A stretch of DNA of 64,000 nucleotides from Candidatus Magasanikbacteria bacterium CG1_02_32_51 (lineage in GTDB: Bacteria > Patescibacteriota > Patescibacteriia > Magasanikbacterales > UBA922): positions 218 through 64,217 of the forward strand of contig MNVC01000019.1 of NCBI GenBank assembly GCA_001871435.1, given 5' to 3'. Position 1 is the stretch's first letter. Each line of letters starts with the position of its first letter. Below the pieces are notes generated by a model, which worked only from the letters and a program-made list of their open reading frames with translations, did not search any database and was not told the origin of the DNA. The translations under genes and the position numbers were made by a program. This document shows, piece by piece, positions 3,803-60,592 of this stretch.

Positions 3803-5062
3803 ATGAAAAAGCGTGTTTTTTTATTTATTTTCATTTTAATAACGGTTTCTTTGACTAACCCTTTTTTTGTTTTTACAACCACTGATACAGAACTGGCTAG
3901 TAACAAAAATGAAATAGACGATTTGAATAATCAAATAGCCCAAAAGAAAAACAAAATAGCCGAATTGGAAAAAACTATTGCTGATTATAAAGCTAAAATA
4001 GAAACAACTAGATTGGAATCGAAATCTTTATCAAATCAACTTTCTATTTTGGATAACTATATTATACAGGTTGATTTGGATATTCAGGCTACACAAGAAA
4101 AAATAGATGCTACAGGTTTAGAAATTAAAGGATTGGATTTATCTATAGCAGACAAAGAAACTACAATTGCTAAACAACAAAGATTATTATCAGGTCTTAT
4201 CAGGACTATTTATTATGAAAATAATAAAAAATATATTGAGGTAATGGCTGCTTATGCTAATTTTTCTGATTTTTATAATCGTGTTCATTATGTTCAAAGT
4301 TTAGAAGAAAATCTTGGTAAGAGTGCCAAAACTATCAGAATAGCTAAAGAAGAATTACAAACCAAAAAACAACAAAGGGAAGAACAACAGACAAGTTATC
4401 AAAATTTGAAAGTTACACTAGATAATAAGAAAAAAGATTTACAAGAACAAATCAAATTTAAAGAAGATCTTTTGTTACAAACTAAGTCTTCTGAGTCTAA
4501 ATACAATACTTTAGTACAGAATTTAAGAAATCAATATAGTCAAATCGAAAATGAAATTACTAGTTTTGAAAGTCAAGTAAGAAAGAAACTAGAAGAACAG
4601 AACAAAATTACTGAAGGTGGTAATCCACAACAAAATGGTCTCTTACCATTGTCTTGGCCGACTCAAAGTCGTTATATTACTGCTTATTTTCATGATGAAA
4701 ATTATCCATATAGAAATATCTTTGAGCATCCTGCTATTGATATTAGAGCTGCTCATGGAACCGCTATACGAGCTACGGCTTCTGGTTATATTGCTCGTGC
4801 TAGAATTTGTACTACTGCTAGTTGTTATGCTTATGTGATGATTATTCATTCTGATGGATTTTCTACTGTATATGGACATTTGAGTAATATTGTGGTGTCT
4901 GCTGATCAATTTGTAACCCGTGGAGATATAATTGGTTATTCTGGAGCCACACCAGGCACTGTTGGTGCTGGTCCATTTACTACAGGGCCTCATTTGCATT
5001 TTGAAGTTCGTAAAGATGGTATTCCTGTAAATGCATTAAACTATTTAGAAAAAGATTATTAA
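3803..5062 (+). CDS. secreted coiled-coil M23 family metallopeptidase (EnvC/NlpD-like)
   Basis: N-terminal signal/TM, a long coiled-coil region, and a C-terminal M23 domain (HxxxD-like region and HLHFEV). Confidence 0.75.
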   Translation: MKKRVFLFIFILITVSLTNPFFVFTTTDTELASNKNEIDDLNNQIAQKKNKIAELEKTIADYKAKIETTRLESKSLSNQLSILDNYIIQVDLDIQATQEKIDATGLEIKGLDLSIADKETTIAKQQRLLSGLIRTIYYENNKKYIEVMAAYANFSDFYNRVHYVQSLEENLGKSAKTIRIAKEELQTKKQQREEQQTSYQNLKVTLDNKKKDLQEQIKFKEDLLLQTKSSESKYNTLVQNLRNQYSQIENEITSFESQVRKKLEEQNKITEGGNPQQNGLLPLSWPTQSRYITAYFHDENYPYRNIFEHPAIDIRAAHGTAIRATASGYIARARICTTASCYAYVMIIHSDGFSTVYGHLSNIVVSADQFVTRGDIIGYSGATPGTVGAGPFTTGPHLHFEVRKDGIPVNALNYLEKDY

Positions 5063-5065
5063 TCT

Positions 5066-5623
5066 ATGAAATTTGATAAAAATAATTTGTTTTTTAGTGA
5101 TAATATTATTTTTTTTGATACAGAATTTACTAATATTGATAGTGAAATTGGTGAAATAATGTCTATTGGTCTTGTCAAACCAAATGGTGAAGAATTATAT
5201 CTAGAATTAGTTTATGATAATAAAACTGTTCATCCTTGGGTTACAGAAAATGTAATCCCTTTTTTGTTAGGTAACAAAATCAGTAAAGAAAAAGCTATAA
5301 AAAAAATTTGGGATTTCATTGGTAGGGGAGAAGATAAGCCTTTTCTTATGGCTTATGTCAATCAATTTGATAGTATTTATTGGTATAGACTTTTTGCTGA
5401 TCCAAAAGATCATCCAGTATTTTGGATACCAATTGATTTTGCTTCTATTTTGTTTGCTTTTGGTTTCAATCCAGAGATAATGAGGGTAGGGGACTTCTTT
5501 GATTGGTTAGATATAGATTTGCAAAAATATAAAAAACACAATGCTTTGGAAGATGCTAAAATGTTAAAAGAAGTTTATGATAAATTTAAAGAAAAAGTAT
5601 TAGTGTCGCACAATGTAGAGTAG
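5066..5623 (+). CDS. DEDDh-family 3'-5' exonuclease (oligoribonuclease/RNase T-like)
   Basis: Exo I FFDTEFT, Exo II AYVNQFD, Exo III HNALEDAKML (H-x4-D). Confidence 0.6.
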   Translation: MKFDKNNLFFSDNIIFFDTEFTNIDSEIGEIMSIGLVKPNGEELYLELVYDNKTVHPWVTENVIPFLLGNKISKEKAIKKIWDFIGRGEDKPFLMAYVNQFDSIYWYRLFADPKDHPVFWIPIDFASILFAFGFNPEIMRVGDFFDWLDIDLQKYKKHNALEDAKMLKEVYDKFKEKVLVSHNVE

Positions 5624-5643
5624 TATTTTTACCAAATTGAAAA

Positions 5644-5680
5644 AAAGAGTAAATATCTTTTCAATATTTACTCTTTTTAA
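5644..5680 (+). terminator. intrinsic terminator after the exonuclease gene
   Basis: Perfect inverted repeat aagagtaaatat / atatttactctt with an 8-nt loop, followed by a T run. Confidence 0.55.
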
Positions 5681-5693
5681 ATTAACATTTATA

Positions 5694-5770
5694 ATTTAGG
5701 AATTTAGAAATTTTCAATTTTAATTTGTCCGCCTAGGGTGGAAACAATTTTCAATTTAAAAATTTCAAAA
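5694..5770. repeat. degenerate member of the modular repeat family (AT-rich leader ttaggaatttagaaattttcaattttaat plus GC piece gtccgcctagggtggaaac)
   Basis: Shares ttaggaatttagRaatttt with 55483-55505 and ttttcaattttaat with 48-63; gtccgcc also occurs inside the 114-bp element. Confidence 0.5.
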
Positions 5771-6438
5771 TTAATTTAAATTCATAAAAATACTTACCAA
5801 TTGTTGATGTCAAAAGTGGGTATAGAACAAAGTAGGATACTCACTGCGAAAAGTTGTAGAAAAAGTCGATACTCTATACCTTTAGTTTTGAACCCACTTT
5901 TTGTGGTGTCGCAAAATATAGAGAATAGTGGCTAAACCTAGCCAAAAAGTAGGTAAGTGAAGTGGGTGTTACCTAAGCTATAAATAACCATTAAAGCTAG
6001 CTAAGATTATTATAAATAATTAGAACAATTATATATTAATATTTTTTTGAACAATTTATTAGTGGGTATATACTGTATTGTAAAAAGAATAAAGTGATGT
6101 AAATTAGATACTGAAACTAATCTTCATTTTAGTCAGAATAAGCCTTAGTGTCGCATAAGATACATTGTGCGACATTGTATCAAATAAGGTTTTTGATACT
6201 CTTTTCTATTACTCCCCTATTTTTTTCTTTTATTTTTATAAAAAAATAAACATCCAAAAAATGTTTATTTAAAAAAACAATAAATAAAAAAGTAGCAATG
6301 GTGGTTAGACAGAATTTGACGTTTAGGTTTTTTAATCCTGTCTAAACACCTCGGCGTCCCCCCCCTCTTTTGAAGGATCAAACGTACCATTCATTATCTA
6401 TTTAACTACTTTAAAAAGATCATGCCAATTATGTGTGG

Positions 6439-7485
6439 CTATTTCCAATATATTCTATCTGGGTATCTCAAATCTATGTAATTCAAAAAAATATTATTAT
6501 CTATTTTTTCTTTATATAAAGAGTTTAATTTATTTATTTGGGCAGTCACTTCCCTATCAAAACGTGTCTTGATATAAAATCCTTTGTAAGTTTTTATTGT
6601 TAGATCTTGTTTGTTATCTTCAAAGATAAAATATTTTAAAGGAATTTTTTCATTATTATCAAGTTGTTTGAACCAATTTATTAATATAATTACTTCTGCT
6701 TTATCCAAAACATTCTCATTTATATTTACCTCTTGTATATTATTTTTATCATAAATAATGGGATAATTGCCTAAATCTTTTTTTATAGTAGCAATATCTG
6801 GTTCATGCAATTTACCTACTACAATTGTGGTAGTAATACTTTCTCCAGTAATAGTGGTTGTAACTACTTTTTGAGTAATATCTTTCCACTCATAATCACT
6901 TATCTTTCGCATTATTTCTACTATCTTTCCATCTAGATCTACATAGCTATATTCTAAACCATTGTCATAGATAATAGTAGAAATTTTTTCTTGAATAATT
7001 ATAGACAATTTGTTGGGAAAACTTTTTTTGACAATAATTTTTTCAATTGGGTATCTTTCTTTTAAGACGTCTTTTATTTCATTTACATTGGAAAAAACAT
7101 AACTATTTTCTCTTATTAAACCTAATTTTTTATAATTGAGAATACCATTTATTGTTTCCAATAAATCTATTTTTTTTATTCTTTGTAATCCTTCTATTTG
7201 TATATCATTTATATTAAAGAAAGGATGAAAAACAAAGACTGAAAAAATAGTTAGAATGCTTATAATTATAATAAAAAGATTTAAATATATTAGTTTTTTA
7301 CTAGCCTTTTCATGAATAAAAGGGTTCTCTATTTCTCTACCTTGCCAAGCAAAATCGCGTCTAGTTTTTTTGGAGTTAAAAAAATAATTAAAAATTTTTT
7401 TTGTACTTTTTACTTTATTATTGAACTTTCTTTGTAATTTGTGATGGTTTATTATTTTTTTGATTGGCACAGGCTTTTTACACAA
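6439..7485 (-). CDS. ftsQ: cell division protein FtsQ/DivIB-like (POTRA domain); non-ATG (TTG) start as called
   Basis: Basic cytoplasmic N-terminus, a single TM, then a POTRA-like INDIQIEGLQRIKKIDLLETIN segment. There is no Met in the first 100 aa, so an alternative start codon is likely. Confidence 0.5.
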   Translation of the reverse strand: MCKKPVPIKKIINHHKLQRKFNNKVKSTKKIFNYFFNSKKTRRDFAWQGREIENPFIHEKASKKLIYLNLFIIIISILTIFSVFVFHPFFNINDIQIEGLQRIKKIDLLETINGILNYKKLGLIRENSYVFSNVNEIKDVLKERYPIEKIIVKKSFPNKLSIIIQEKISTIIYDNGLEYSYVDLDGKIVEIMRKISDYEWKDITQKVVTTTITGESITTTIVVGKLHEPDIATIKKDLGNYPIIYDKNNIQEVNINENVLDKAEVIILINWFKQLDNNEKIPLKYFIFEDNKQDLTIKTYKGFYIKTRFDREVTAQINKLNSLYKEKIDNNIFLNYIDLRYPDRIYWK

Positions 7486-7494
7486 TCCTGAAGC

Positions 7495-7530
7495 CGGCGA
7501 AGCACGGCGTAGGATCTTTCTTAAAGTATA
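7495..7530 (-). promoter_or_regulatory. start-codon-abutting GC hairpin motif (member 1 of 5), upstream of ftsQ
   Basis: In mRNA sense: gaucc-uacgccgugcuucgccggcuuc-aggau, immediately 5' of the start. Near-identical to 14703-14738. Confidence 0.5.
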
Positions 7531-7579
7531 TTTTTTAGTAAATTTTTGCTATGTTATAAATAATTATTTTGTTTGGCAG

Positions 7580-7693
7580 ATTAATCCGCCCACAGCCCAA
7601 GGCGTGCACGGCAAGGCGGACAAGGTTTAATTCCTCGTCAGCTTCAGCCAGAGGACTGATCAGCCTTGGGCACGATGCTGCTAGGTAGTTCAT
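7580..7693. repeat. GC-rich structured repeat element, copy B (inverted; in the sense orientation of, and upstream of, ftsQ)
   Basis: Reverse complement of 64-177 at about 98% identity. Confidence 0.85.
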
Positions 7694-7786
7694 TTATAAA
7701 TGTTTTTAAGCAGGAAACCTGTCTGCCGACAGGCAAGGATCCCTCATTCAATTTCTTCGTACCTCAGAAATTTCTTTCAGGATAAA

Positions 7787-8812
7787 TTAAAAACCACGTT
7801 TTTTGTTTCTGATAGTTTCAATAACCCAAGTAATCCAATACTTTGGTGAAATTACAAAATCTTGACAAGGTAATAAATTTTTTTGAAAACCACCAAAACC
7901 TTTTTTAAAGTGCGTAATACCTTTGAAAGGATGACTAATAGGAGCATCATTTGGTGCTATTCCCCAAAAATTGTAATACTTCATTCCCCTATTTTTGGCT
8001 TCTTGAATAGCTTTCCATTGTAAGAGATAAGAAGTTGGTATTTTTTTATCTTGATTTAATGAAGCACCATGACGATAAGCTGCAGAATTGCCATAAAAAT
8101 AAACAACTGCTGATGAGTCTAATTTGGGATTATTAGATAAATAAGCCTTTAAAACAGATACTTCGTCATCTTTTTGAAAAGCAACAAATTCTTTTTCAAC
8201 ATAAAAATTGGAAAAACGTGTAAAATTATGTTTCTTGGCTGTATAATCATGCAAAACATTGAATTCTTCCAAAGCTTTTTTATCATTAGAAAAAACAATT
8301 TTTACTTTTTCTCTAAGACATCTATTGATTAGATTACGATGATTTTTGTTCATGTTGACTAATATTTCTTCCTCACTTTTTTCTAGATCCAAAAGCCAAG
8401 TTATCTCAGCCAAAACATGAGTAGGAGATTTTCTAAAACCAATGTTTTTGTAAGTATTTCTAGTTTCTTCTGTATCATCTATAAAAGGAGAAACTCTAAT
8501 AAAATTATAATATTCTTTTTTGGCTTTCTCCTCTAAAAAATTTATAAATAATTTTAAAATGTTTTCATAATCTTTACTAATTACAGGTCCATAAGGCGCA
8601 AAAAGAAAATTACCACGTTTGGCGTGTACACTCAAAATCAAACTGCCAGCAATCAATTTATCAGATTCATATATACCTATGAGCCATTGCTTTTCATTTA
8701 TAGATTCATAAAATTCACCATACTTGTAAGACTGTGTCATAAGCACGAATTTTTGTTGTGAAAGAAATTGTTCCCATTCTTCTTTATTTTGTATTTCTTT
8801 TACTTTGTACAT
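7787..8812 (-). CDS. FemAB family peptidoglycan bridge aminoacyltransferase, paralog 2
   Basis: GNAT-like FemAB architecture; FKKGFGG motif near the C-terminus; 341 aa. Confidence 0.65.
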   Translation of the reverse strand: MYKVKEIQNKEEWEQFLSQQKFVLMTQSYKYGEFYESINEKQWLIGIYESDKLIAGSLILSVHAKRGNFLFAPYGPVISKDYENILKLFINFLEEKAKKEYYNFIRVSPFIDDTEETRNTYKNIGFRKSPTHVLAEITWLLDLEKSEEEILVNMNKNHRNLINRCLREKVKIVFSNDKKALEEFNVLHDYTAKKHNFTRFSNFYVEKEFVAFQKDDEVSVLKAYLSNNPKLDSSAVVYFYGNSAAYRHGASLNQDKKIPTSYLLQWKAIQEAKNRGMKYYNFWGIAPNDAPISHPFKGITHFKKGFGGFQKNLLPCQDFVISPKYWITWVIETIRNKKRGF

Positions 8813-18644: not shown

Positions 18645-20681
18645 TTATTTTTTGTATAATGCCCACCAACGATAAAAGGCATCAGCTATTGGTTCAGCAT
18701 TTATTCCGCCTTCTCCGCCTTCTTCTATTAAAATTGTTACTACAATCTCAGGATTTTCAAAAGGAGCAAAAGAAGTAAACCAAGCATGAGTATCTTTTGT
18801 TTTACTCCATTGTGCTGTACCTGTTTTACCAGCTGATGTAAAAGGTAGTGTAGATAATCTATGACAAGAACCATAAGATACACAATCCTTCATACCAAGA
18901 CGAACAGTATTTATGTTTGCTGGATCAATAAAATTTTGATTCAACACTTCAGATTTTATGTCTGTAACTCTCCCAGTTTCTAAATTAACAATTTGCTTTA
19001 ATGTATGTGGTACATACAATGTTCCACCATTGGCAATAGTGGCTGTCATAGATGCAATTTGTAAAGGCGTTGTCAAAAAATCACCTTGGCCAATAGAATA
19101 GTTATATGTATCCCCAATATACCAAGGTTCTTTTTTGACGCGTTGCTTCCATTGTGGTGTTGGTAAAAAGCCACTTGATTCAGCTGGCAAATCAATACCT
19201 AACATTTTACCAAAGCCAAAATATTTTAGATATTCATTTATTTTATCAACTCCCAAACCAACAAAATTTCCATAGCCACCACCAATATAATAGTAAAAAG
19301 TATTTACAGACAAAGCTAAAGATTTTTGTACATTAGTCATACCATGTCCACCAACTTGCCAATCAGGAAAAAACCACTCTGCAACTCGCAATCCACCAGT
19401 ACTCAAAAAACTAGTGTTAGGATTGATTATTTTTTCTTGTAAAGCAGCTAAAGCCATAACAGGTTTTATAACTGAACCTGATGGAAAATTACCACTAATA
19501 GCTCTATTGAATAAAGGTTCGTCTGAATCATTTAAATATTTGTTATAATTATCTTTAGTTATTCCACCAGAAAAATCATTATTATCAAATCCAGGATAGC
19601 TAACTAAAGCCAAAATTTCGCCACTGCGTGGATCTAAAACTATAGCAGAAGCTCGATCTTTATTTATTTCTTGTAATTTTTGATTAACTAATTCTTCTAA
19701 TTTATTTTGTATATTTGCATCTATTGTCAAAATTAAATTGGATCCAGCAATAGGTTCCTTTTCTGCTAAGTTTTGTTGTTCTTTACCTTGAGCATTTACT
19801 TCTATTTTTTTCTCTCCATAGGTACCACGCAAATAAATTTCATAATTTTTTTCTATTCCAGTTTTCCCAATAGAATCTGAAGGAAAATATCCTTTTTTAT
19901 AATAAGTATCCAATTCTTGAGGTGACAATTTTCCTACATAACCTAAAATATGTGATAAACTATTATTGATATATTTTTGATTATCTTCAGGGTGTAAAAA
20001 ATCAGCGTTGTTAGAGGTATCATTAGTGCTAGTAGTATTTATACCTTTTTCTGTAGGATCTAAAATATACAATCTTTTACTACCAAGCTGAATACTAATA
20101 CCTGGCAAATCTGTATTAGCTATTTGTGTTTTTAAAGCTGATTCATAAGGAATATCTTCAGTAATAATAATTGAATCTTGTTGATAATCTTTATATTTTT
20201 CTATTATATCACTTATTTCTTTTTTATCTTGATCAGTAATACTTATCAATTTTTCTATAATTTTATTCAAATCTTCTTGATTTTTTGGTAAATTTTTTGG
20301 AATTACAGACAAAGAAAAATTTGGTACATTTTGAGTAAGTTGGACATTGTTTCTATCAAAGATAAAACCTCTTTCAGATGGTACTGGAATAATTTTTTGT
20401 CTATTATTCTCGGCTCGTACACGATAATTATCTCCTAATAAAATTTGTAAAAAAAATCCTCTTCCTAAAATAATAGAAAAACAAAAAACTACAAAAAGCA
20501 AAAATAAAAAAGTCTTTTTACTACCAGAAAAACTTGATCCCAAATAAGAACTGCCTGAATTATTGACTTCATTTTCAGAATTTTTTTCAGTAAATAAATT
20601 ATCTTCTGTCCAAGACAATTTGTATTTACCCTTTAGATTAATTTTTTGTTTTGGATTTATAAGATATGGATCAATTTCCAT
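18645..20681 (-). CDS. mrdA: penicillin-binding protein 2 (transpeptidase)
   Basis: SxxK (SVIKP) and KTGTA motifs; N-terminal TM; placed after mreBCD. Confidence 0.85.
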   Translation of the reverse strand: MEIDPYLINPKQKINLKGKYKLSWTEDNLFTEKNSENEVNNSGSSYLGSSFSGSKKTFLFLLFVVFCFSIILGRGFFLQILLGDNYRVRAENNRQKIIPVPSERGFIFDRNNVQLTQNVPNFSLSVIPKNLPKNQEDLNKIIEKLISITDQDKKEISDIIEKYKDYQQDSIIITEDIPYESALKTQIANTDLPGISIQLGSKRLYILDPTEKGINTTSTNDTSNNADFLHPEDNQKYINNSLSHILGYVGKLSPQELDTYYKKGYFPSDSIGKTGIEKNYEIYLRGTYGEKKIEVNAQGKEQQNLAEKEPIAGSNLILTIDANIQNKLEELVNQKLQEINKDRASAIVLDPRSGEILALVSYPGFDNNDFSGGITKDNYNKYLNDSDEPLFNRAISGNFPSGSVIKPVMALAALQEKIINPNTSFLSTGGLRVAEWFFPDWQVGGHGMTNVQKSLALSVNTFYYYIGGGYGNFVGLGVDKINEYLKYFGFGKMLGIDLPAESSGFLPTPQWKQRVKKEPWYIGDTYNYSIGQGDFLTTPLQIASMTATIANGGTLYVPHTLKQIVNLETGRVTDIKSEVLNQNFIDPANINTVRLGMKDCVSYGSCHRLSTLPFTSAGKTGTAQWSKTKDTHAWFTSFAPFENPEIVVTILIEEGGEGGINAEPIADAFYRWWALYKK

Positions 20682-20685
20682 ATTA

Positions 20686-21189
20686 TTATTTTAATATTTT
20701 AAACTTTGTAAAAAATTTATTTAATAAAAAATATAATAAAAAGGCCGTAATAGTAGTAAATAATAATTCCCAACCAAAATAAAAAAGAAAAGTTAATTTT
20801 ATTTTTGTGCCATTAAAAACTATAAAAAAAATATAAAAAATTCTAAAAAAAATAACTTCCAATGCTACCATAGTTGCCAAAGCCCAGACAGACTTATTGG
20901 TAAAGAATTCATAATATAACCAATATACCAATAAAAAACTAATTGTTAAAGAAAAAATAAAAATACCAAAATATAATTCACTATATAAATCCATTAAAAC
21001 ACCAAAAAGAAAAGCACCCCAGACAATATTCCCTGAACCATAAAGACCTAACAGTATAATCAAAAATATGATAACCAAATTTATATTTTCAAAAGGATAT
21101 GGCAATAAAAAAGAAGAATAAAGACTTAATATAAAAATAAAAATTATTAAGAAAAAATAAAAGATTATTCGTAAAATAGATTTTAACAT
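20686..21189 (-). CDS. mreD: rod shape-determining protein MreD (polytopic membrane protein)
   Basis: 167 aa, all TM helices, positioned between mreC and mrdA. Confidence 0.5.
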   Translation of the reverse strand: MLKSILRIIFYFFLIIFIFILSLYSSFLLPYPFENINLVIIFLIILLGLYGSGNIVWGAFLFGVLMDLYSELYFGIFIFSLTISFLLVYWLYYEFFTNKSVWALATMVALEVIFFRIFYIFFIVFNGTKIKLTFLFYFGWELLFTTITAFLLYFLLNKFFTKFKILK

Positions 21190-21221
21190 AGCAAAAATAA
21201 AAAATTATCAACTAACTTATT

Positions 21222-30844: not shown

Positions 30845-31169
30845 AGTATAAATTATGTTGATTTGAACCTATCTTGTAAGCAAAATACCCGCCTTATTGA
30901 CGGGACACTATACAATATAAGACGTAAAATTAGCCAAAATGTTACAGTAGAGTCTTATTTAACTATTTTTTAGGATAAAAAATATGATAAAATTGTCTAA
31001 TTTTTCAAACATAATATCTCTTTGTCATCACCTAAATATTCTATTTAGAAATATAAGATAAAAACAAAAATAATCTCAAACAAAATTTTTATTGAAAAAA
31101 TAAAAACTTTGGTTGAGTGGGAAGGCATTTTCTCCTTTGTAAATGCTTATTCCCAACCCCCCTTGTTGT

Positions 31170-31571
31170 TCAGTTCTTAGACACAGGCTTGTACGAGGAG
31201 TGATGATGGACGATTTTCCACTCATCCTCAGCCATTCTCTTGGCAAGGAAAGTGAAGCGAGCTTCTACAACCAGTTGTCCATCGTGGGTGGAAAAATCGT
31301 AGAACCCAGCGAGGAGAACAATCTCTTCACCAAACTCCTGAACGACCAATTCTCTAATAATTCCTCGCGGACTACTAGGCATGAAGTCCTCCTGGAAGTA
31401 CTCCAAGGCACCACTCACACCCCTCTTGAGATCACCCGACATAGTTGGTAGAAAAGTGGCATCATCCGCGTACAACGCGGCGATGACATTTGGTTCATCA
31501 CTATGTAAGGCCTCAAGCCATTTATCTAGGTACTTGTGCATTTTGCCACCTTTCTCAGAAGTAAATACCAA
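31170..31571 (-). CDS. NTF2-like/SnoaL-like small protein (DUF4440 or SgcJ/EcaC-type) on a GC-rich foreign-looking cassette
   Basis: 133 aa; about 50% GC coding sequence against a 28% GC genome; fold assigned from its pattern of hydrophobic and acidic residues. Confidence 0.5.
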   Translation of the reverse strand: MVFTSEKGGKMHKYLDKWLEALHSDEPNVIAALYADDATFLPTMSGDLKRGVSGALEYFQEDFMPSSPRGIIRELVVQEFGEEIVLLAGFYDFSTHDGQLVVEARFTFLAKRMAEDEWKIVHHHSSYKPVSKN

Positions 31572-31604
31572 GGATGGATTCCTTGAAAATTTCTGAGCAT
31601 GCGC

Positions 31605-31636
31605 ATTAGAATAATACTATAGCAATCCACTGTCAA
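31605..31636 (-). promoter_or_regulatory. near-consensus sigma70-type promoter (TTGACA-N17-TATTCT / N14-TATTAT) carried on the GC-rich cassette
   Basis: Minus-sense ttgacagtggattgctatagtattattct, about 35 nt upstream of the cassette gene's ATG. Confidence 0.4.
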
Positions 31637-31760
31637 CCACCAAACCCTTGACAAAGTAAAATTTAATGTTCTATTTTAAATTCATCTAGTACTAATGATG
31701 AAGTGTAATAAAAAACACTAATTTTTAAAAAATAGTGTTTTATATATAAACAATTTGAAT

Positions 31761-33329
31761 TTATAAATCATTTCCAGTATATGACAAATTAAAACTTTTA
31801 TTAATCAAAGGAAAATCAGGCACCACATTATGAACCCCTGCATGTCCAAGTAAAGACCAATTTATAAAGGAAGGATCACGTGGTGCGACTCTCTCAATAA
31901 TACCATCAGCATCTGTAGTAACAAAATAAAGTATCTCTCCACGCCAACCCTCGACTACACTTATAGCAACAGCATTTTTTTTGAACGGAGAAATATTTTT
32001 TGCACAAATAAGTCCATCGGGTAATATTTTTAGAGCGTCTTTAATAATTTTTATTGATGCATAGACTTCTTTGATGCGAACATAAAATCTAGCATATGCA
32101 TCCCCACTTTGTTCGATTGCAATTTTATCAAGTTCCAATTCATCATAAGCCGCATAAGGGAAATCAACTCGCGCGTCATCAGTGATACCAACTGCTTTTG
32201 CGACAATCCCTGTTGCACTATGTTCTATGATAGTCTCTAGTGACAATTCACCAGTACCTTTGAGACGATTTAGGAGTGATGAACTATTTTCAGCAATATG
32301 AATAATTTCATTAAAATCTTTTAGTATAGAAGTAAGCTCTTCGGATAATTTTTCCTTTTCTCTATTTTCTATGTCCTTGGAGATTCCACCACAAACATTG
32401 ATTCCACGCAAGAACCTGTTTCCTGTCAACCGCTCATTGATTTGCATAATCATTTCTCGTAACCGTGCGCTGTGTGCACCACCAAAATTAAATCCAGTAT
32501 CAAGCATCATGGCACCAATGTCGCCAAAATGATTGGCTAATCGTTCAAGTTCCGCATATATAACACGCAAATAAGTAGCTCGTTTCGGTGGTATGGTGTC
32601 TGATAGTTGTTCTAGAGCCTGACAAAATGCCAATGAATGACTAAATGAACTGTCTCCAGAGATTTTTTCAGAAAGACGGATTTTTTCATTAAGTGCCAAA
32701 GTTTCAAATAATTTTTCACTGCCTTTATGGGTAAATCCAAGACGAGATTCAAGTAAAACTATTTCTTCACCCGCAACGCTAAATCGAAAATGACCAGGTT
32801 CAATAATGCCGGCATGGATTGGACCAACTGGAATTTCATATATTCCTTCACCATCAACTTTTTGAAATTGATATGTTCCGCTTGCTTCTTGTGGTCTGTT
32901 ATTCCAATCAAAATCCTTTCGGAGTGGATAAATATCTGTTGGCCAATTCTCATGAAGAATAATCCCTCGTGAATCCTGATGACCAACTGGATCTAGTCCA
33001 AAAAATGTTTTGATTTTTCTTTCATAATTCCAGGCATTATGAATAAGAGGCGAAAGTGATGGAAATTGTTCAGTATTTTTTAATTCAATAAATGGGATAA
33101 TAAATCCATGTTCGTGAGGTATCCCAAAGACATACCAGATCTTAAAACATCCATTTTCTTTTCTCTCATCAGTTGCCGTAATGAATTTAAGTTGAAGATT
33201 TTTATTATTTCGTAAGTCAGAAGCGAATGCAAGTATATTGGAAACAGAAACTTCAAAAATAACAACATTTTCATAAATAGTTAATTTTTCCTTTCCAGAA
33301 AAATATTGTTTTATTTTTTCTATGTTCAT
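31761..33329 (-). CDS. fused NuoC-NuoD-like / group 4 [NiFe]-hydrogenase large-subunit homolog lacking all Ni-Fe-ligating cysteines
   Basis: PVGPIHAGIIEPGHFRF and LGFTHKGSEKLFE match large-subunit motifs. The N-terminal L1 position reads KISGDSSFSHSLAF (canonical RxCGxCxxxH) and the C-terminal reads RDPSFINWS (canonical DPCxxCxxH). Confidence 0.7.
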   Translation of the reverse strand: MNIEKIKQYFSGKEKLTIYENVVIFEVSVSNILAFASDLRNNKNLQLKFITATDERKENGCFKIWYVFGIPHEHGFIIPFIELKNTEQFPSLSPLIHNAWNYERKIKTFFGLDPVGHQDSRGIILHENWPTDIYPLRKDFDWNNRPQEASGTYQFQKVDGEGIYEIPVGPIHAGIIEPGHFRFSVAGEEIVLLESRLGFTHKGSEKLFETLALNEKIRLSEKISGDSSFSHSLAFCQALEQLSDTIPPKRATYLRVIYAELERLANHFGDIGAMMLDTGFNFGGAHSARLREMIMQINERLTGNRFLRGINVCGGISKDIENREKEKLSEELTSILKDFNEIIHIAENSSSLLNRLKGTGELSLETIIEHSATGIVAKAVGITDDARVDFPYAAYDELELDKIAIEQSGDAYARFYVRIKEVYASIKIIKDALKILPDGLICAKNISPFKKNAVAISVVEGWRGEILYFVTTDADGIIERVAPRDPSFINWSLLGHAGVHNVVPDFPLINKSFNLSYTGNDL

Positions 33330-33330
33330 A

Positions 33331-34776
33331 TTACTTATAGTATAAAGTGGCGTTATGGATTAATACCTGCAAAAATGGTGGCTGATAAAAACTCAAAACT
33401 AACACCAGAATAAGAAGTATTAGAGGAGGAAGAATGAGCCAAATACTTTCTTTTTCTTGTTTCATTTCAGACGGTTTTTCTCCAAAAACCATAGCAGAAG
33501 CGTGTTTAAAAAATCCAATAAAAACAATAGCAGTAAGCAAAATTGCCGTAATGCCAATGACTGGATGTGTAGTAATTCCGGCAGAAAAAGTAAACAATTT
33601 AGTAAGAAATATCCCAAAAGGCGGTGCGCCGGTAATAGCAAAAAATCCAATCAAAAATAATATACTGGTTATTGGTAATGCCTTGAGTGCACCTTTGACA
33701 TTAGCAATTTTTGCTGAATGATATTTGAGTAAAAAATTTCCTGACAAGAAAAAGAGAGCAGATTTAGTTAAAGAATGATAAATAGTATGAAGGATAGCTG
33801 CCATGACACCTAGCCCGCCAAACCCAAATCCAAGCGCAATAATTCCCATGTTTTCAATACTTGAATAGGCAAGCAAACGCTTGTAACTTTTTTGACTAAG
33901 AATAATGAGAGCGGAGATTAGAATTGAAAATGTACCAAAAACAATAAGCAAAGTCTGAGAAAAAGATTGACCAATCACAGAGTCAGTAATAATTTTAAAT
34001 TTTAAGACAATAACAAGTGCGACATTAAGTAATACTCCAGACAAAAGTGCGCTGATTGGTGCTGGGGCTTTGCTATGGGCATCAGGTAACCAGGTATGCA
34101 TCGGAGCAAGTCCAACTTTCGTTCCATAACCAATCAACACAAAAACAAAAGCTATTTTGGCAAGTAAGGGATCCATATGAATGGCATTTGTGGTGAGCAT
34201 ATGCCAACTAATAAACCCATTTCCAAGTGAGGGATCAATAGAAGTAAAATACAAAAGTGTACCAAAAAATCCCAACAGTAAACCGATAGAATTGATAATC
34301 AAGTATTTCCAAGCTGCCTCCATGGCTGAAGATTTGTTATAAAAACTAATAAGAAAAGCAGTGGAAAGTGTGGTTGCTTCAATAGCAATCCATGCAAAAA
34401 TTGGACTACTTGATGAAATAGCTAGAAACATTGCCCCTAAGAACAGATTAAGTAAAGTAAAATACTGTTTGACGCGGGTAAATCCGATAATATTATTAGC
34501 GGTTTCTTTTCTCAAATAAGGAATGGAATAAGCGACTGTGGCAAACCCGACACAGGAAATAATCAGCATCAATAAAGCACCAAGTGCATCAACGGAAAAA
34601 AATGCAAATGGAGAATAGTCTCCCGAGAGAGCAACCTTGAAAGCAACCACAAATGACTCTATAAGTGCAACTGCTGAGGCACTAATTGAAACACATTCAA
34701 CAGTAATACGATGTTTTGCTAGAATTGCGATCAAAGATGCGATCACTAATGATGAAATGATAATAATAAATTCCAT
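33331..34776 (-). CDS. NuoM/NuoN/MrpD-like proton-pumping antiporter subunit
   Basis: About 14 TM helices in a complex I antiporter-like pattern. Confidence 0.65.
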   Translation of the reverse strand: MEFIIIISSLVIASLIAILAKHRITVECVSISASAVALIESFVVAFKVALSGDYSPFAFFSVDALGALLMLIISCVGFATVAYSIPYLRKETANNIIGFTRVKQYFTLLNLFLGAMFLAISSSSPIFAWIAIEATTLSTAFLISFYNKSSAMEAAWKYLIINSIGLLLGFFGTLLYFTSIDPSLGNGFISWHMLTTNAIHMDPLLAKIAFVFVLIGYGTKVGLAPMHTWLPDAHSKAPAPISALLSGVLLNVALVIVLKFKIITDSVIGQSFSQTLLIVFGTFSILISALIILSQKSYKRLLAYSSIENMGIIALGFGFGGLGVMAAILHTIYHSLTKSALFFLSGNFLLKYHSAKIANVKGALKALPITSILFLIGFFAITGAPPFGIFLTKLFTFSAGITTHPVIGITAILLTAIVFIGFFKHASAMVFGEKPSEMKQEKESIWLILPPLILLILVLVLSFYQPPFLQVLIHNATLYYK

Positions 34777-34780
34777 AGTA

Positions 34781-35428
34781 TTAGTCTTTTAAATGTTTCA
34801 TGGTGCTGGTATCAAGCGATCCAAAATGTCGATAAATCATGGAAATAAAGACAGTAGAAATCACCAACCAAATAAAAATATCAAATATAATGCCAAATTG
34901 AAGCATAGGTGATTGTTCGAGGCCGGCAAAAATTGCAAAGGCAACGATACTATTTTCTAGAGAAAGAATTCCAACAGCTTGTGAAAGAGCGTCTTTACGG
35001 TTGATGACCAAGAAAAGAGAAATAAAAATTGCTGAAAGCGCAAGTGATAATAAGGCTTGATGAGCCGGAATAATATTCGTGAGAGATAAGAATTTTTGAG
35101 AGTGCGCAATGGCGGTAAATCCAGCAAGAACGATGAGTGTGAGTGGCAAATTCAAATAAGTACTTACTGAAAATGTTAATTTATGTTTTTGAATCAACCT
35201 GAAAAAAAATACTGACGCCAAAATAACTTTGATAACCAGTGTCACTAAAACTACAAAAAGAAGAAAAAAGCTATTTGTTTCTAAAAAAGAAGTAAACAAT
35301 ATCAATGTGATAATCAAAGATTGAATACTATACGCAATAACAGCTCCAAAATTTTTCTTTGCGAGATGCAAATAAAAAATAGATAAAAATAATATCCCAA
35401 GTAGAAACTGTAAGAAAAATATGTTCAT
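34781..35428 (-). CDS. HyfE-like small membrane subunit (NuoK-like repeats)
   Basis: 215 aa, multi-TM; GILSLENSIVAFAIFAGLE resembles NuoK/HyfE. Confidence 0.4.
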   Translation of the reverse strand: MNIFFLQFLLGILFLSIFYLHLAKKNFGAVIAYSIQSLIITLILFTSFLETNSFFLLFVVLVTLVIKVILASVFFFRLIQKHKLTFSVSTYLNLPLTLIVLAGFTAIAHSQKFLSLTNIIPAHQALLSLALSAIFISLFLVINRKDALSQAVGILSLENSIVAFAIFAGLEQSPMLQFGIIFDIFIWLVISTVFISMIYRHFGSLDTSTMKHLKD

Positions 35429-36390
35429 AGTATTTGCATTTGAATAAGACCGATTGCTAGTGCGCTCAAAATAAGAGAAGTAATTAATAAGTCAGGCAAT
35501 CTAAAAAATCTAAACTTGGCCATAGTAGATTCAATAATTCCGACTATAGCGCACAAAATAAATATTTTTATAAGAAGAATAATAATACCTATAACAATCG
35601 CTTGTGTATCAACACTATGGGCGATACCATAAGGGAAAAACAAATTTGCTCCTAAGGCTGCAAAAATAAAAAATTTATTGGCCGCCGCCCATTCCATTAA
35701 CGCCAATCTTTTACCTGAATATTCCAAAATCATCGCTTCATGAATCATAGTTAATTCTAAATGAGTCGCTGGATTATCAAAAGGGAATCTTCCTGTTTCA
35801 GCAAGTAACACAATAAAAAATCCAATAAAGGCTAATATCGTAGACAAAAAGAATTGAGTACTTAGTAACATTCCAGCGTTTGAAATTACAAAAAGATTAG
35901 TGGTGCCAATACTGAGCGCAGTCGTAAAAAGAGCTAGAATAAGACCTCCTTCAGCCAGCGCTGAAATAGTCATTTCTCGACTAGAGCCAAATCCACCAAA
36001 CGCGCTTCCTGTGTCCATGCCCGCAAGTGCTAGAAAAAATGTACCCAATGCAAGCGTATAGACAACGACTAAGAGATCACCAGTTAGTGTATTTTTTAAA
36101 AAAGAAGCAAAAAGTGGAATACTTGCTCCAATAACAATAGTGGTAGCAAAAATAATAAATGGCGCAAAACGAAAGACCCATGACGCGTCAGTACTTATTA
36201 CTTCATCTTTATGCAAAAGTTTCCATATGTCTTTGTATGGTTGAAAAATACTTGCTCCAACACGATTTTGAAGTTTCGCTTTTATTTTTTTTATGATGCC
36301 CATACACAATGGCGATAGTGCTGGCACACAGATGAGTTGTAATATCCAAATAAAAATCATCATATAGTTATTACGATAAAAATAGAGCAA
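35425..36390 (-). CDS. NuoH/HycD-like membrane subunit
   Basis: KAKLQNRVGASIFQPYKDIWKLLHKDE matches the NuoH N-terminal signature. Confidence 0.7.
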   Translation of the reverse strand: MLYFYRNNYMMIFIWILQLICVPALSPLCMGIIKKIKAKLQNRVGASIFQPYKDIWKLLHKDEVISTDASWVFRFAPFIIFATTIVIGASIPLFASFLKNTLTGDLLVVVYTLALGTFFLALAGMDTGSAFGGFGSSREMTISALAEGGLILALFTTALSIGTTNLFVISNAGMLLSTQFFLSTILAFIGFFIVLLAETGRFPFDNPATHLELTMIHEAMILEYSGKRLALMEWAAANKFFIFAALGANLFFPYGIAHSVDTQAIVIGIIILLIKIFILCAIVGIIESTMAKFRFFRLPDLLITSLILSALAIGLIQMQIL

Positions 36391-38416
36391 TTGCTACCGC
36401 GATTAAGATATAGAAAACATACATATTGATACTCCCACTTTGGATCGCTTTGGCACGCACTGATAGTGTGGTAATAAATTTATTGAGTGGTAGATAAAAA
36501 TATAATCGATAAATATCTCGTGTACGCAGTGTCACAGTTCTAGATTTTGGAAAATATCTTATTTTGGAATCACGATATTCAATTTCATTTTGAATACTTG
36601 GCCGAAGGATACCCGCAAAAATAAGAATAATTGAACGAGCAAACCCAGTAGCAGTAATTTCCATACGCGGTGTAAGATTAGTGCCACAGTCCCATGTCGC
36701 ACCGATTTTAGTTTTTTGATTTCTATTGATAACAAATTTGACGAGTAGTACGACAATGAACAGTGCAAGAATAAGGAAAACAATCAGTGCTAGAGCAGAG
36801 ACCGATCCAAAATTATTTGGTGCAATAAAATTAATTTTGGAAGATAAAATAGGTGGCAATGAAATATTGCGAAATACAGTGAGATGGGTACCAATATTTA
36901 TAAATAAAGATCCTAAATATCCTGAAAATATACCAAACAAAAGACAGCATAATGCTAGAGCTCCCATTCCTATAAGTTGTGAAAGTGAGGATTCTTTTGC
37001 ATGAGCTACTTCTGTGCTTCTTGGACGAGCCAAAAATGTCGCACCAAAAGCTTTTACAAAACAAGCTAAAGCAAGTCCACCCGTTATGGCCAGAGCGCCG
37101 GTTGCTAATACAAAAGTAGATTTTACAAGTATATTGACAGATGTCATTCCTTGTAAAAGTGTTTGAAAAGTCAACCACTCACTAAAAAAACCATTGAATG
37201 GTGGCAAGGCTGATATTGCCATAGAACCAACAAGAAAAAAGAATGCTGTTTGAGGCATATATTTAATCAATCCACCATATGCTTCCATGTTGCGTGTATG
37301 TGTTTGGTTGATAACTGATCCGGCACTCAAAAACAACAAGGACTTAAAGGTTGCATGATTGAGGGTGTGAAAAAGAGCAGCCCCAAGACCAAAAAGCGCA
37401 AGTAGTGTGTTACCAAGTGATATAAAAACAAGTGCACTACCAAACCCCAATAAAATAATTCCGATATTTTCAATACTATGATAGGCCAAAAGTTTTTTTA
37501 TATCGTGTTCAGTAAGCGCGTAGAGAACTCCAAGTAAAGCTGATAATGAACCAATAATCAGAATAGTAATTCCCCACCATAAAGGGATTGGTTGGAGTAT
37601 ATCCAAAAAAAGTCTAATCATCATATAAATTCCAGTTTTTATCATTACTCCAGACATAAGCGCTGAGACATGCGAAGGAGCTGCTGGATGAGCTACTGGA
37701 AGCCAAATATGAAATGGAATAATACCAGCTTTAGTTCCAAATCCAATAAGGGCTAAGATAAAGATAGTATTTTTGATAAATACAGGAATAGCAACGGCTT
37801 GGGCTTGGATTGATTCAAAATCAAAAGAGTTTGTAAATTTATACATGAGCAAAAATGCTAAGATTATAAAGGCGGTACCCACATGTGTCATAACGAGGTA
37901 GAGAAATCCTGCCTTGGTATTATTCACATCATTATGATCATACACAACGAGAAAATATGATGCGATAGACATTATTTCCCATGCAATCAAAAAGAAAAGT
38001 CCGTTTGAAGCTGTTACTACCATGAGCATACCTATGATGAATAAATGATAAAAAAATCCAAGTGCACTAATGCTATATTTTTTATAATAATGTTTGATAT
38101 ATCCAATTCCGTATAATGAACAAAAAAGAGTAATAAGAGAAATCACAAAAATAAAAAAGGCAGACAGCTGATCAATATGGAACGAAAAAGAAAGAAGCGG
38201 AAAAACTGATGAATAAGCCACAAAAGATAAATTACCAGTAAAAAAAGCACTTATCGAAAAAAATATTCCCCACAAAGAACCGATGATTGCAAAGAAACTC
38301 TGCCATCCATTTGCCAATTCGTCTTTTTTTCTAAAAAACAAAGATCCAATTGCTCCCAAAGAATACAGCAAAAGTAATAAAAAAAATCCTGACTCAGTTG
38401 TTAAAAGGTTTACCAT
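36371..38416 (-). CDS. NuoL/HyfB-like antiporter subunit (long)
   Basis: 681 aa with about 16-18 TM helices; MrpA/NuoL-type. Confidence 0.65.
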   Translation of the reverse strand: MVNLLTTESGFFLLLLLYSLGAIGSLFFRKKDELANGWQSFFAIIGSLWGIFFSISAFFTGNLSFVAYSSVFPLLSFSFHIDQLSAFFIFVISLITLFCSLYGIGYIKHYYKKYSISALGFFYHLFIIGMLMVVTASNGLFFLIAWEIMSIASYFLVVYDHNDVNNTKAGFLYLVMTHVGTAFIILAFLLMYKFTNSFDFESIQAQAVAIPVFIKNTIFILALIGFGTKAGIIPFHIWLPVAHPAAPSHVSALMSGVMIKTGIYMMIRLFLDILQPIPLWWGITILIIGSLSALLGVLYALTEHDIKKLLAYHSIENIGIILLGFGSALVFISLGNTLLALFGLGAALFHTLNHATFKSLLFLSAGSVINQTHTRNMEAYGGLIKYMPQTAFFFLVGSMAISALPPFNGFFSEWLTFQTLLQGMTSVNILVKSTFVLATGALAITGGLALACFVKAFGATFLARPRSTEVAHAKESSLSQLIGMGALALCCLLFGIFSGYLGSLFINIGTHLTVFRNISLPPILSSKINFIAPNNFGSVSALALIVFLILALFIVVLLVKFVINRNQKTKIGATWDCGTNLTPRMEITATGFARSIILIFAGILRPSIQNEIEYRDSKIRYFPKSRTVTLRTRDIYRLYFYLPLNKFITTLSVRAKAIQSGSINMYVFYILIAVAIALFLS

Positions 38417-38417
38417 A

Positions 38418-38960
38418 TTATTTTAATTTTGTTTGTTTGCTATCCACCGTCTCAAGAATATTAAGAAGACCATAGAGAATCATTTTTGGTGATGGTGGAT
38501 CTCCAGGGATGCAATAGTTCACGGGCACTACAGTCTCAACTCCATCTAATACTGCATATGAACCCTTATATATACCACCATTTATTGCATCATCACCGAC
38601 TGCGACGACAATTTTTGGATCAGGTGTTGCCTCATAGGCACTTTGTACAGCTTTCGCCATATTTCGTGTCATTGGTCCAGTTATCAAAAGCATATCAGCA
38701 TGTCTTGGTGAGGCAACAAAATGAATACCAAAACGTTCAATATCATAAAAACTATTGGACAATGCAACCATTTCTTGTTCGCACGCGTTATCAGATCCAG
38801 CATCAATCTGTCTAATAGCTAAAGATCCTTTAAATAACTTCTTTACTTTATCTTGTATTTTTTCACCAATTTCAATAAAATCCATTGATATAAAATCCTT
38901 TTTAGATAAGGAAATTACATTATTGGGTGTTTTAAATATTTTTAAAAAAAATTTAAACAT
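38418..38960 (-). CDS. NuoB/HycG-like small-subunit homolog retaining at most 2 of the 4 [4Fe-4S]-ligating cysteines
   Basis: ASPRHADMLLITGPMT is the NuoB signature. Canonical CCxxE reads NACEQE, GxCxxxGG reads GDDAINGG (no Cys), and CPP reads CIPGDPP. Confidence 0.7.
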   Translation of the reverse strand: MFKFFLKIFKTPNNVISLSKKDFISMDFIEIGEKIQDKVKKLFKGSLAIRQIDAGSDNACEQEMVALSNSFYDIERFGIHFVASPRHADMLLITGPMTRNMAKAVQSAYEATPDPKIVVAVGDDAINGGIYKGSYAVLDGVETVVPVNYCIPGDPPSPKMILYGLLNILETVDSKQTKLK

Positions 38961-48142: not shown

Positions 48143-48336
48143 CAAAAAAAGCCCCTATGGGGCAATTATATTGAAGATGTGAGTGGACAGGCACGATCTT
48201 CAAAAAAATTACTCAACGTGGAAAGCCTATAAGGAGGTAACGGCACATCGCGTCAAGGTGTCTTCGAGAAGCCTCAGATCCAAGTTTTCCACACACACAT
48301 GGATACTGAGTTTTTCGCACCTGCCACACTCACAAA
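48143..48336 (-). ncRNA. candidate rod-like sRNA (6S-like) with its own promoter and intrinsic terminator
   Basis: The minus-strand transcript starts near gugagugUGGCAGG (48333) and closes with CCUGUCCAcucac. Internal helices UGGAAAA/UUUCCA and GAAAAACUCA/UGAGuaaUUUUUU give a long irregular hairpin, ending in gccccauaggggc plus a U8 run (48143-48163). TTGACA at 48363-48368 in minus sense. GC enriched. The only overlapping ORF (48183-48437, +) looks spurious. Confidence 0.35.
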
Positions 48337-48433
48337 TAGAGTATTGCACTTTTTCAAGCCTTTGTCAAGTATCTAAACAAATAAAATTACCCTTAGTTAA
48401 GGCAATTTTATTTATTAATTTAAAAAAAATATC

Positions 48434-60320: not shown

Positions 60321-60348
60321 TTGATATTAATAAAAAACGTGATACAAT
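60321..60348 (+). promoter_or_regulatory. sigma70-like promoter TTGATA-N16-TACAAT driving the GC-rich ncRNA candidate
   Basis: ttgata at 60321-60326 and tacaat at 60343-60348. Confidence 0.45.
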
Positions 60349-60349
60349 A

Positions 60350-60585
60350 GATGTGCTGGAGTAGTTCTGGAGGGGTTCTACAATCTTCAACCAGTCTGTT
60401 GGAGGCCGGTACAAAGTGCAGAGATATATGCGACTTGCCTGTTATTCCTAACTGACAAAGGAGGTGGAGGGCAAGTTTGGCTCCCAGTTAATGACGCTTA
60501 TCTACGTCGGAGCCGGATAGGTCAAAGTTTGGGAAGACTTAGACCTTGATGTCATATTCTCTGCACTCTTCTTCCCACCATTTTA
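60350..60585 (+). ncRNA. candidate structured ncRNA of about 230 nt, class undetermined
   Basis: About 48% GC island in a 325-bp ORF-free gap. Long-range helix gugcagaga (60413-60421) / ucucugcac (60559-60567). ggaggccgg and ggagccggauagg motifs. The 3' end reads cccacca. Confidence 0.3.
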
Positions 60586-60592
60586 TTTGAAA

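Follow-up and report, generated by a model that had tools for sequence, protein, structure and literature searches.

Here, we describe a compositionally distinct transcription unit in a 64,000-nucleotide stretch of Candidatus Magasanikbacteria bacterium CG1_02_32_51 (GenBank assembly GCA_001871435.1, contig MNVC01000019.1, positions 218 to 64,217; the whole stretch is referred to as the window), and assign its product to the iota-class carbonic anhydrase (iota-CA; SgcJ/EcaC, CaMKII-AD-like) family, with an NTF2 fold. A preliminary description of this DNA, made from the sequence alone, had interpreted the GC-rich segment at 31110-31660 as a recent horizontal acquisition. This interpretation was not borne out: GC-rich homologs were found in the same slot of related lineages, with a shared promoter architecture, a shared 3' element, or both. 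Because the unit is old and conserved in the clade, it is not a recent import. We consider it rather probable that it is an old clade-resident unit of the iota-CA family, which is expressed from a native-type promoter and has been kept GC-rich by allele exchange or selection.

In the scenario that we favor, the native-type promoter would drive production of a cytoplasmic protein of 123 amino acids (aa), with a conserved 3' hairpin and then a terminator behind the coding sequence (CDS). The predicted function of the protein is the reversible hydration of CO2 to bicarbonate and a proton. The unit would be an old feature of this Magasanikbacteria clade, situated downstream of a Nuo/Mrp-like module and upstream of the ABC exporter and AddA genes, and would have been acquired, or have been present as an old resident gene, before these lineages split; an ancient foreign origin is possible. 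Afterwards, alleles might have been swapped through recombination in the conserved flanks; alternatively, the CDS might have been kept distinct by selection acting on its composition or on RNA structure. An old, syntenic island with a native-type promoter is a counterexample to the reading of sharp GC and codon-usage islands as recent horizontal gene transfer (HGT), and it adds a putative iota-CA to the candidate phyla radiation (CPR)/Patescibacteria. A full-text literature search found no paper connecting iota-CAs with these bacteria. The unit also poses an evolutionary puzzle, namely, a persistently GC-rich CDS that diverges much faster than its own promoter, 3' hairpin, and neighbors.

The GC-rich unit and its slot in related lineages

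The abrupt switch in base composition that had drawn attention to the segment is real. GC content at 31110-31660 is 45.4%, compared with 30.8% across the window, which places the segment first among all 550-bp windows (mean, 0.307; standard deviation, 0.037; runner-up, 0.405). The earlier figure of about 50% GC holds for the core (31160-31520, about 47-57%) but is too high for the segment mean (45%); the flanks have 16-24% GC. The CDS (47.8% GC) has a GC content at third codon positions (GC3) of 0.52, compared with 0.200 ± 0.033 (maximum, 0.287) in 51 native genes, with G3 and C3 each raised about 2.5-fold over the native level, and the deviation thus sits at synonymous positions. Compositional and codon-usage tests of the kind that had been proposed returned strongly atypical values for an index resembling the codon adaptation index (0.40 versus 0.71 ± 0.05 in native genes, z = -6.2) and for trinucleotide composition (z = 4.4), as expected of a recently acquired genomic island. 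Expression-linked codon bias does not account for the high GC3, because the highly expressed atp genes, atpE among them, show ordinary usage; in addition, G3 and C3 are both elevated. The most deviant trinucleotide composition in the window was found elsewhere, at 20651-21200 (z = 4.9), where it coincides with an open reading frame (ORF) for a 167-aa MreD-like membrane protein (weak Pfam match) and probably reflects hydrophobic amino-acid bias.

The minus strand at 31075-31676 carries a complete monocistronic unit, consisting of promoter, structured leader, ribosome-binding site, CDS, 3' hairpin, and terminator. Its features are listed below; L and P numbers are labels for the loci or contigs of relatives and for homologous proteins, respectively.

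31668..31676, minus strand: upstream motif AAATAGAAC, just beyond the GC-rich part, seen in alignments with L078 and L083 (both copies) and as TAGAAC in L081
31647..31653, minus strand: half-site TGTCAAG, an inverted repeat with the -35 region (TGTCAA-N12-TTGACA), present in all NTF2 promoters and in the atp-operon promoter; it may be an operator or UP-like element
31608..31636, minus strand: sigma-70-type promoter from a consensus scan, with -35 TTGACA at 31636-31631, a 17-nucleotide (nt) spacer, and -10 TATTCT at 31613-31608; L078, L083 (twice), and L108 have identical hexamers and spacing
31554..31597, minus strand: hairpin CTCAGAA...TTCTGAG in the 5' untranslated region (UTR; RNAfold of the 62-nt leader, -17.8 kcal/mol, z = -2.6)
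31546..31552, minus strand: Shine-Dalgarno sequence AAGGTGG, 4 nt ahead of the ATG, from direct sequence reading
31170..31541, minus strand: CDS of 123 aa, ATG at 31541, TGA at 31172-31170, HHHSS codons at 31208-31194; public identifier AUJ23_01840, hypothetical protein
31118..31162, minus strand: G-run and 3' hairpin 1, apical ACAAAGGAG at 31140-31132 (fold -15.7 kcal/mol, z = -2.8)
31075..31117, minus strand: AT-rich hairpin 2 with T-runs, the probable terminator (inverted repeat, RNAfold), kept in L108, L083, and L081
46544..46567, minus strand: second copy of the promoter architecture, TGTCAAGAGTACTATGATTGACAG, outside the cassette, ahead of an atpI-like ORF and the ATP-synthase operon

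Thus, the picture of a foreign-looking, self-contained cassette with its own TTGACA-N17-TATTCT promoter at 31636-31608 stands. The product, given earlier as 133 aa, has to be shortened to 123 aa, with the start at ATG 31541 behind AAGGTGG as in the public annotation; an in-frame TTG upstream would add only 10 residues and lies within the leader hairpin. Relatives have a leader hairpin as well, with other sequence. An antisense ORF of 102 aa, already suspected to be a GC artefact, gave a codon-permutation p of 0.04 here and 0.26-0.45 in relatives (four lineages) and had no family match, and we reject it as a gene. Rfam covariance models run on 31075-31680 had no match at gathering thresholds or at E <= 1, and on this result together with the strong protein homology we reject a structured-RNA gene in place of a protein. 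Downstream, at 31057-31137 on the minus strand, a 27-codon hydrophobic ORF, MPSHSTKVFIFSIKILFEIIFVFILYF, opens with an ATG behind AAGGAG, the conserved loop of the 3' hairpin. This ORF is probably fortuitous, because its ATG is absent from L108 and L083; its Shine-Dalgarno-like loop is nonetheless conserved.

In the window, the unit is flanked by AddA, ABC, and Nuo-like genes, and collinearity with the sister metagenome-assembled genome (MAG) L032 extends over more than 20 kb (AddA, 89.5% amino-acid identity). The slot between NuoCD and ABC in L032 holds a CBS protein and a CitMHS permease, both of native GC, and no NTF2 gene. The proposed check for absence in sister genomes therefore had a divided outcome: the gene is missing from L032/L079, the closest sister by AddA, but present in L108, L109, L110, L078, L083, and, in decayed form, L081. 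In L108/L109/L110, the gene for P0029, which is among the closest relatives of the window protein (48% identical), sits immediately between NuoCD and AddA, the surrounding DNA being otherwise syntenic; its GC3 is 0.46, compared with 0.17-0.21 in its neighbors. A metagenome scan anchored on the ABC exporter recovered L078, L081, and L083, each with a 45-55% GC island and an NTF2-like ORF ending in HHSS between permease and ABC; the L081 copy is truncated. Altogether, a GC-rich homolog fills the slot in at least four further lineages, and five assemblies that are independent of one another, from JGI, ENA, and Logan samples, carry it; three of the lineages have the 3' element as well. The gene is missing from two lineages, and L077 and L080 carry other genes beside ABC. 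GC3 of the slot genes ranges from 0.42 to 0.62 across lineages. The 3' element pattern was found only beside NTF2 genes (the window and 5 of 110 loci); one match to it in the viral contig L116 is a single chance match inside coding sequence. Every lineage folds a stable hairpin past the stop codon, with four distinct sequences and with stems out of register between lineages.

The promoter had been described as a kind not seen at native genes. However, the ATP-synthase operon has the same architecture at 46567-46544, and we conclude from this copy in the window itself that the promoter type is rare but native. The pattern TGTCAAG-N10-14-TTGACAG has two matches in the window, with none expected, and these precede the NTF2 gene and the atp operon (both TGTCAAG-N12-TTGACAG). 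They are also the only perfect TTGACA/16-18/TAnnnT sites on the coding strand in intergenic DNA of the window. The window, L078, L083 (two tandem copies), and L108 have a longer conserved block in common, TTGTCwAG-N11-12-TTGACAr-N17-TAnnnT.

These data render a recent import of a foreign cassette with a foreign promoter from a GC-richer donor very unlikely. The strong deviation in composition and codon usage, the lack of the gene in the closest sister by AddA, and the low identity of the best homolog found anywhere (48-51%) would fit such an import, and sharp compositional edges, atypical codon usage, and a single cargo gene are indeed shared with recent-HGT genomic islets. However, in L108-110, L078, L083, and L081, lineages at saturated or near-saturated synonymous divergence from the window, the slot is filled by homologous GC-rich units that share the promoter architecture, the 3' element, or both, so that the finding named beforehand as refuting a recent transfer, a gene in relatives with similar GC, was essentially made. 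The absence from the orthologous site that marks a recent island was not found. The promoter type is common to the native atp operon, and the 3' UTRs of the window and L108 are 80% identical at saturated synonymous divergence, which implies long co-residence. Moreover, unlike a recent islet, the cassette is located at the same locus in diverged relatives, lacks mobility genes, tRNA, and repeats, and has not been ameliorated despite this saturation.

As stated in the preliminary description, integrases and flanking direct repeats are lacking. Integrase and transposase domains were absent from the neighboring genes, the set that was scanned rather than all ORFs of the window; no tRNA is adjacent, the sole one in the window lying 30 kb away; and the repeat search yielded only short flanking repeats at chance level. 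Among these, a 12-nt direct repeat (31035-31046 / 31665-31676) was treated as chance, one copy being the conserved AAATAGAAC and the other not conserved in relatives. An integron-like cassette is disfavored by hairpin ends resembling GTTRRRY/RYYYAAC in the wrong order, the presence of an own promoter, and the lack of an integrase nearby. Nor is a defense, anti-defense, or phage origin supported: no allele had a PADLOC or PHROGs match, and the relatives present in viral contigs are just 28-32% identical and have host-like GC. A chimeric assembly, in which a fragment of a GC-richer organism was mis-joined, would account for the composition jump and for nothing else. For practical purposes it is excluded by the recurrence of the unit, at an identical position, in the independent JGI, ENA, and Logan assemblies; collinear native sequence on both sides and the native-type promoter add to this, and its probability is negligible.

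Assignment to the iota-carbonic-anhydrase family

The product had been predicted to be an NTF2-like protein. Homology searches confirmed this and sharpened it to the iota-CA type, with 3H51 as closest structure. Pfam returned CaMKII_AD (PF08332, 1.2e-11 over residues 12-129) as well as SnoaL_3 and DUF4440, and the NCBIfam model SgcJ/EcaC (TIGR02246) scored 34.2 bits against a cutoff of 33.95. In the PDB, 3H51 was the sole sequence match (6e-15). A 27-member family profile matched 3H51 at 2e-41, the iota-CA structures 7C5X/7C5Y at 2e-16, and ketosteroid isomerases and CaMKII hubs at about 1e-4. The AlphaFold2 model (pLDDT, 90.9) is an alpha+beta cone with 3H51 as best Foldseek match (TM score, 0.87; root mean square deviation, 1.6-1.8 Å). 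An exhaustive protein search retrieved 1144 relatives, headed by tandem-repeat proteins such as those known from algal iota-CAs.

Iota-CAs combine a CaMKII-AD/SgcJ-EcaC (NTF2-like) domain with a C-terminal (H)HHSS motif, catalytic residues T106, Y124, and S199, and H197 as proton shuttle (PMC8425729). Bacterial members are single-domain proteins annotated as SgcJ/EcaC, algal members are tandem proteins, and 3H51 is treated as the Xanthomonas enzyme XcaCA (PMC8425729). In the window protein, the HHHSS motif corresponds to H112-H113-H114-S115-S116. T33, Y48, H113-H114, and S115-S116 do not vary among the 27 aligned members, which include all slot alleles and the fast-evolving ones, and a 40-member alignment shows no variation at T33, Y48, H113, and S115 and almost none at H114 and S116. 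T33 (in FLPT), Y48 (in EYF), H114, and S116 align to LPT, NYF, and HHSS of 3H51. Thus, the sequence and fold features that mark the iota class, namely, the CaMKII-AD/NTF2-like domain, homology to TIGR02246 and to a solved structure, the (H)HHSS motif, and the Thr, Tyr, Ser, and His positions, were all found, and the protein is best assigned to this family.

Among known proteins, the SgcJ/EcaC-type iota-CAs (Xanthomonas XcaCA, that is 3H51, and Burkholderia territorii BteCA-iota) share the single CaMKII-AD/NTF2-like domain, HHHSS, the LPT threonine, and the EYF tyrosine with the window protein. The latter differs in being just 31-32% identical, in the lack of a pre-sequence, and in its length of 123 aa at the short end of the family; its gene, moreover, is compositionally aberrant, fast diverging, and located in a CPR genome, and its activity is predicted. 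The metal-free iota-CAs (COG4337; Anabaena AspCA, 7C5V; Bigelowiella BnaCA, 7C5X/7C5Y) and the diatom protein LCIP63 have the domain family and HHSS in common with it. The family profile matches each repeat of 7C5X, and the top matches of the window protein are tandem-repeat proteins. In contrast, the metal-free enzymes contain an insertion that is absent from SgcJ/EcaC-type members (PMC8425729), the algal forms are multi-domain and organelle-targeted, and significant alignment is restricted to the C-terminal half.

An NTF2-fold protein with another role, such as SgcJ-like tailoring, ketosteroid-isomerase-like catalysis, ligand binding, immunity, or hub-like scaffolding, is a rather unlikely alternative to a carbonic anhydrase. 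The NTF2 superfamily is functionally very diverse (PMC8425729); Foldseek also matched ketosteroid isomerases, AtzH, SgcJ, and CaMKII hubs, with E values near 1e-7; and the gene, with its fast, allele-like divergence, calls immunity or antigen loci to mind. However, the profile matches 3H51 and 7C5X 25-35 orders of magnitude better than it does other NTF2 classes, and even the most diverged alleles keep HHHSS and the Thr, Tyr, His, and Ser positions unchanged. PADLOC and PHROGs scans of the alleles gave no match, and no Pfam immunity family matched the window protein. A CaMKII hub proper is not indicated either, given that this is a stand-alone 123-aa protein and that hubs match the family profile at just 2e-4 to 7e-4.

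Several points speak against a carbonic anhydrase. The TIGR02246 score passes its cutoff marginally. Equating T33 and Y48 with T106 and Y124 of AspCA relies on the 3H51 alignment and a figure legend in PMC8425729, rather than on superposition with 7C5V. Bacterial iota-CAs usually have an N-terminal pre-sequence of 19 or more residues, which is typical and not strictly defining (PMC8425729). The window protein has neither such a pre-sequence nor a signal peptide, with just 7 residues of the ORF preceding the first domain helix, and it is therefore predicted to be cytoplasmic; the L083 allele has a hydrophobic N-terminus. CO2 hydratase activity of the window protein and its CPR homologs is a prediction.

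Divergence and persistent GC-richness of the coding sequence

Between the window and L108, synonymous sites are saturated (proportion of synonymous differences, 0.60-0.74), and the nonsynonymous divergence (dN) of the NTF2 gene is 0.43, compared with 0.16 for AddA and 0.28 for NuoCD. Identity between the two units is 80% in the 3' element, 58% in the CDS, and 38% at CDS third positions. At four-fold sites it is 0.17 (n = 23) in the NTF2 gene and 0.53 in AddA, the saturation expectation being 0.38. The same contrast was observed within the trio L078, L081, and L083, whose flanks have a synonymous divergence (dS) of 0.42-0.96 and a dN of 0.02-0.13, whereas the NTF2 ORF reaches a dS of 1.07 to >2.8 and a dN of 0.39-0.72 (dN/dS, 0.25-0.37). 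For L078 and L083, dS is >2.8 in the NTF2 gene versus 0.42 in adjacent genes. The region is a mosaic, as exemplified by the pair L078-L081 with a dS of 0.08 in CBS and 0.91 in ABC. The window allele is nearer to about 150 family members from outside the slot than to the alleles of L078 and L083.

Hypervariable allelic loci, such as surface-antigen or immunity cassettes that are swapped by recombination between flanks, show a comparable pattern of conserved flanks and UTRs, far more diverged CDS, atypical composition, and presence/absence polymorphism. They differ in that the cargo here, a putative enzyme of the housekeeping type, has catalytic residues that do not vary, and the comparison is an analogy only.

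A single ancient acquisition from a very GC-rich donor, followed by vertical inheritance, neutral and still ongoing amelioration, and fast protein evolution under relaxed constraint, would require neither allele exchange nor selection on composition. GC3 is intermediate in all lineages (0.42-0.62), one copy is truncated (L081), two lineages lost the gene, and the AddA four-fold signal (0.53 versus 0.38) makes an ancestral GC3 of about 0.8 arithmetically possible. Nevertheless, we consider this course of events unlikely. The dS of the gene far exceeds that of adjacent genes in the L078-L083 pair, its four-fold identity between the window and L108 is below that of AddA, and the conserved catalytic residues and dN/dS of 0.25-0.37 speak against simple decay. 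The ordinary hosts of the family have a GC3 of just 0.41-0.51, so that a donor with a GC3 of 0.8 would be ad hoc. CPR members of the family encoded elsewhere have host-typical composition (P0185, GC3 of 0.26; P0005, GC3 of 0.24).

Alternatively, GC-richness might be kept for a stable transcript or DNA structure, with a dual-function or structure-dependent mRNA and the protein being secondary. In four lineages the CDS folds more stably than dinucleotide shuffles (z of -2.4 to -4.8 versus about -1.2 for native gene segments), the 3' hairpin is conserved, each lineage has a leader hairpin, and the other GC islands of the genome resemble structured RNAs. On the other hand, the extra fold stability occurs on both strands, antisense z-scores being similar; Rfam gave no match even at E <= 1; and the CDS sequences are too diverged for a covariation test. 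Conservation of the catalytic residues at the protein level, furthermore, shows that the ORF is translated and under selection. We regard a primarily structural role as improbable.

The old resident unit with allele exchange or selection, which we prefer, has difficulties of its own. Slot alleles formed a clade in 0 of 100 neighbor-joining bootstraps and the window with L108 in just 42%, in a poorly resolved tree, so that the tree lends a single origin no support. A search across 5.8 billion proteins showed each allele to be essentially a singleton and yielded no donor for allele exchange. AddA four-fold sites are not fully saturated (0.53 versus 0.38), which leaves room for neutral, incomplete amelioration from a very GC-rich ancestor. 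Finally, a link to a CO2-rich habitat is only suggestive, and the habitats of the sister contigs are not part of its support.

With regard to this habitat, we take the CG prefix in the MAG name to denote the Crystal Geyser genomes. CPR bacteria abound in the Crystal Geyser system, a geyser and aquifer driven by CO2 (PMC6792436). A carbonic anhydrase is plausibly useful in a CO2-driven aquifer, and handling of CO2 and bicarbonate plausibly important for an organism with minimal metabolism living there. It is tempting to speculate further that an AT-rich CPR clade actively keeps a GC-rich, fast-diversifying iota-CA cassette, through selection on composition or RNA structure or through continual allele exchange, and has placed it under the regulator of its ATP synthase. 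Together with the adjacent Nuo/Mrp-like cation-pumping module, the enzyme might then form an energy-coupled system for CO2/bicarbonate or pH homeostasis, with a logic like that of DabAB or cyanobacterial NDH-1/CupA. We put this forward as a long shot. If true, lasting compositional foreignness would be a selected trait and no sign of recent transfer.

Neighboring modules and further elements of the window

The shared promoter architecture suggests possible co-regulation of the gene and the ATP-synthase operon. In the window clade, the atp operon is followed by the Nuo-like module and then by the NTF2 gene, and one promoter type is found at both the operon and the gene. In the distant CPR-like contig L002 (5489-6480), a homolog of native GC, P0005 (38% identical; GC3, 0.24), directly follows atpC. 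This arrangement may represent an old ATP-synthase link or a coincidence; L002 is just a distant relative (AtpD, 78%; AtpC, 43%), and we treat the link as a weak hint.

Functional coupling to the Nuo-like module is not supported beyond this clade: at about 70 other Nuo-module loci, the gene never occurs within 10 kb, and the adjacency in the window is therefore clade-specific synteny only. The Nuo/Mrp-like (hydrogenase-like) module itself (31761-38960), which was compared with L032 and L003, shows 68% nucleotide identity to the sister genome and about 61% amino-acid identity in NuoCD, compared with 87% for the flanking atp genes and 82% for AddA, and the best NuoCD match of the window (76%) is in a MAG labeled Saccharibacteria. 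These identities suggest that the module has been exchanged between CPR lineages.

In L083, the terminator hairpin, promoter, and long structured leader are duplicated in tandem (4615-5030 and 5028-5790; 198 of 222 nt identical). Of the two copies, the first drives a GC-rich segment that may encode a 42-aa membrane peptide (ATG near 4850), and the second drives the NTF2/iota-CA allele. Just upstream of AddA, L032 (15506-15637) and L108 (7496-7630) encode a conserved acidic, Cys-rich peptide of 43-44 aa (...CCGGCNC(C/G)V), which is absent from the window, where the gap between ABC and AddA is just 107 bp.

Further GC-rich islands of the window are intergenic. The island at 48150-48400 on the minus strand has a TTGACA promoter (19-nt spacer, TACTCT) and would specify an RNA of about 200 nt whose ends pair in a long closing stem and which terminates in GCCCCATAGGGGC followed by T residues. 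It folds with z = -5.6 on the minus strand and has no Rfam match, and may be a divergent 6S-like or other structured RNA. The islands at 60321-60600 and 7471-7800 (GC, 0.46-0.49) are without a convincing ORF, have z-scores of -2.8 to -3.9 on both strands, and gave no Rfam or ARAGORN match; they are probably unrecognized CPR noncoding RNA genes. About 45 nt upstream of the start codon of the ABC exporter, at 30888-30904 on the minus strand, a terminator-like GC hairpin, CCCGTCAATAAGGCGGG, is followed by T residues and could act as a leader element or attenuator. Further upstream of this hairpin, a block (around ACTGTAACATTTTGG...TTTTACG) is conserved with L032.

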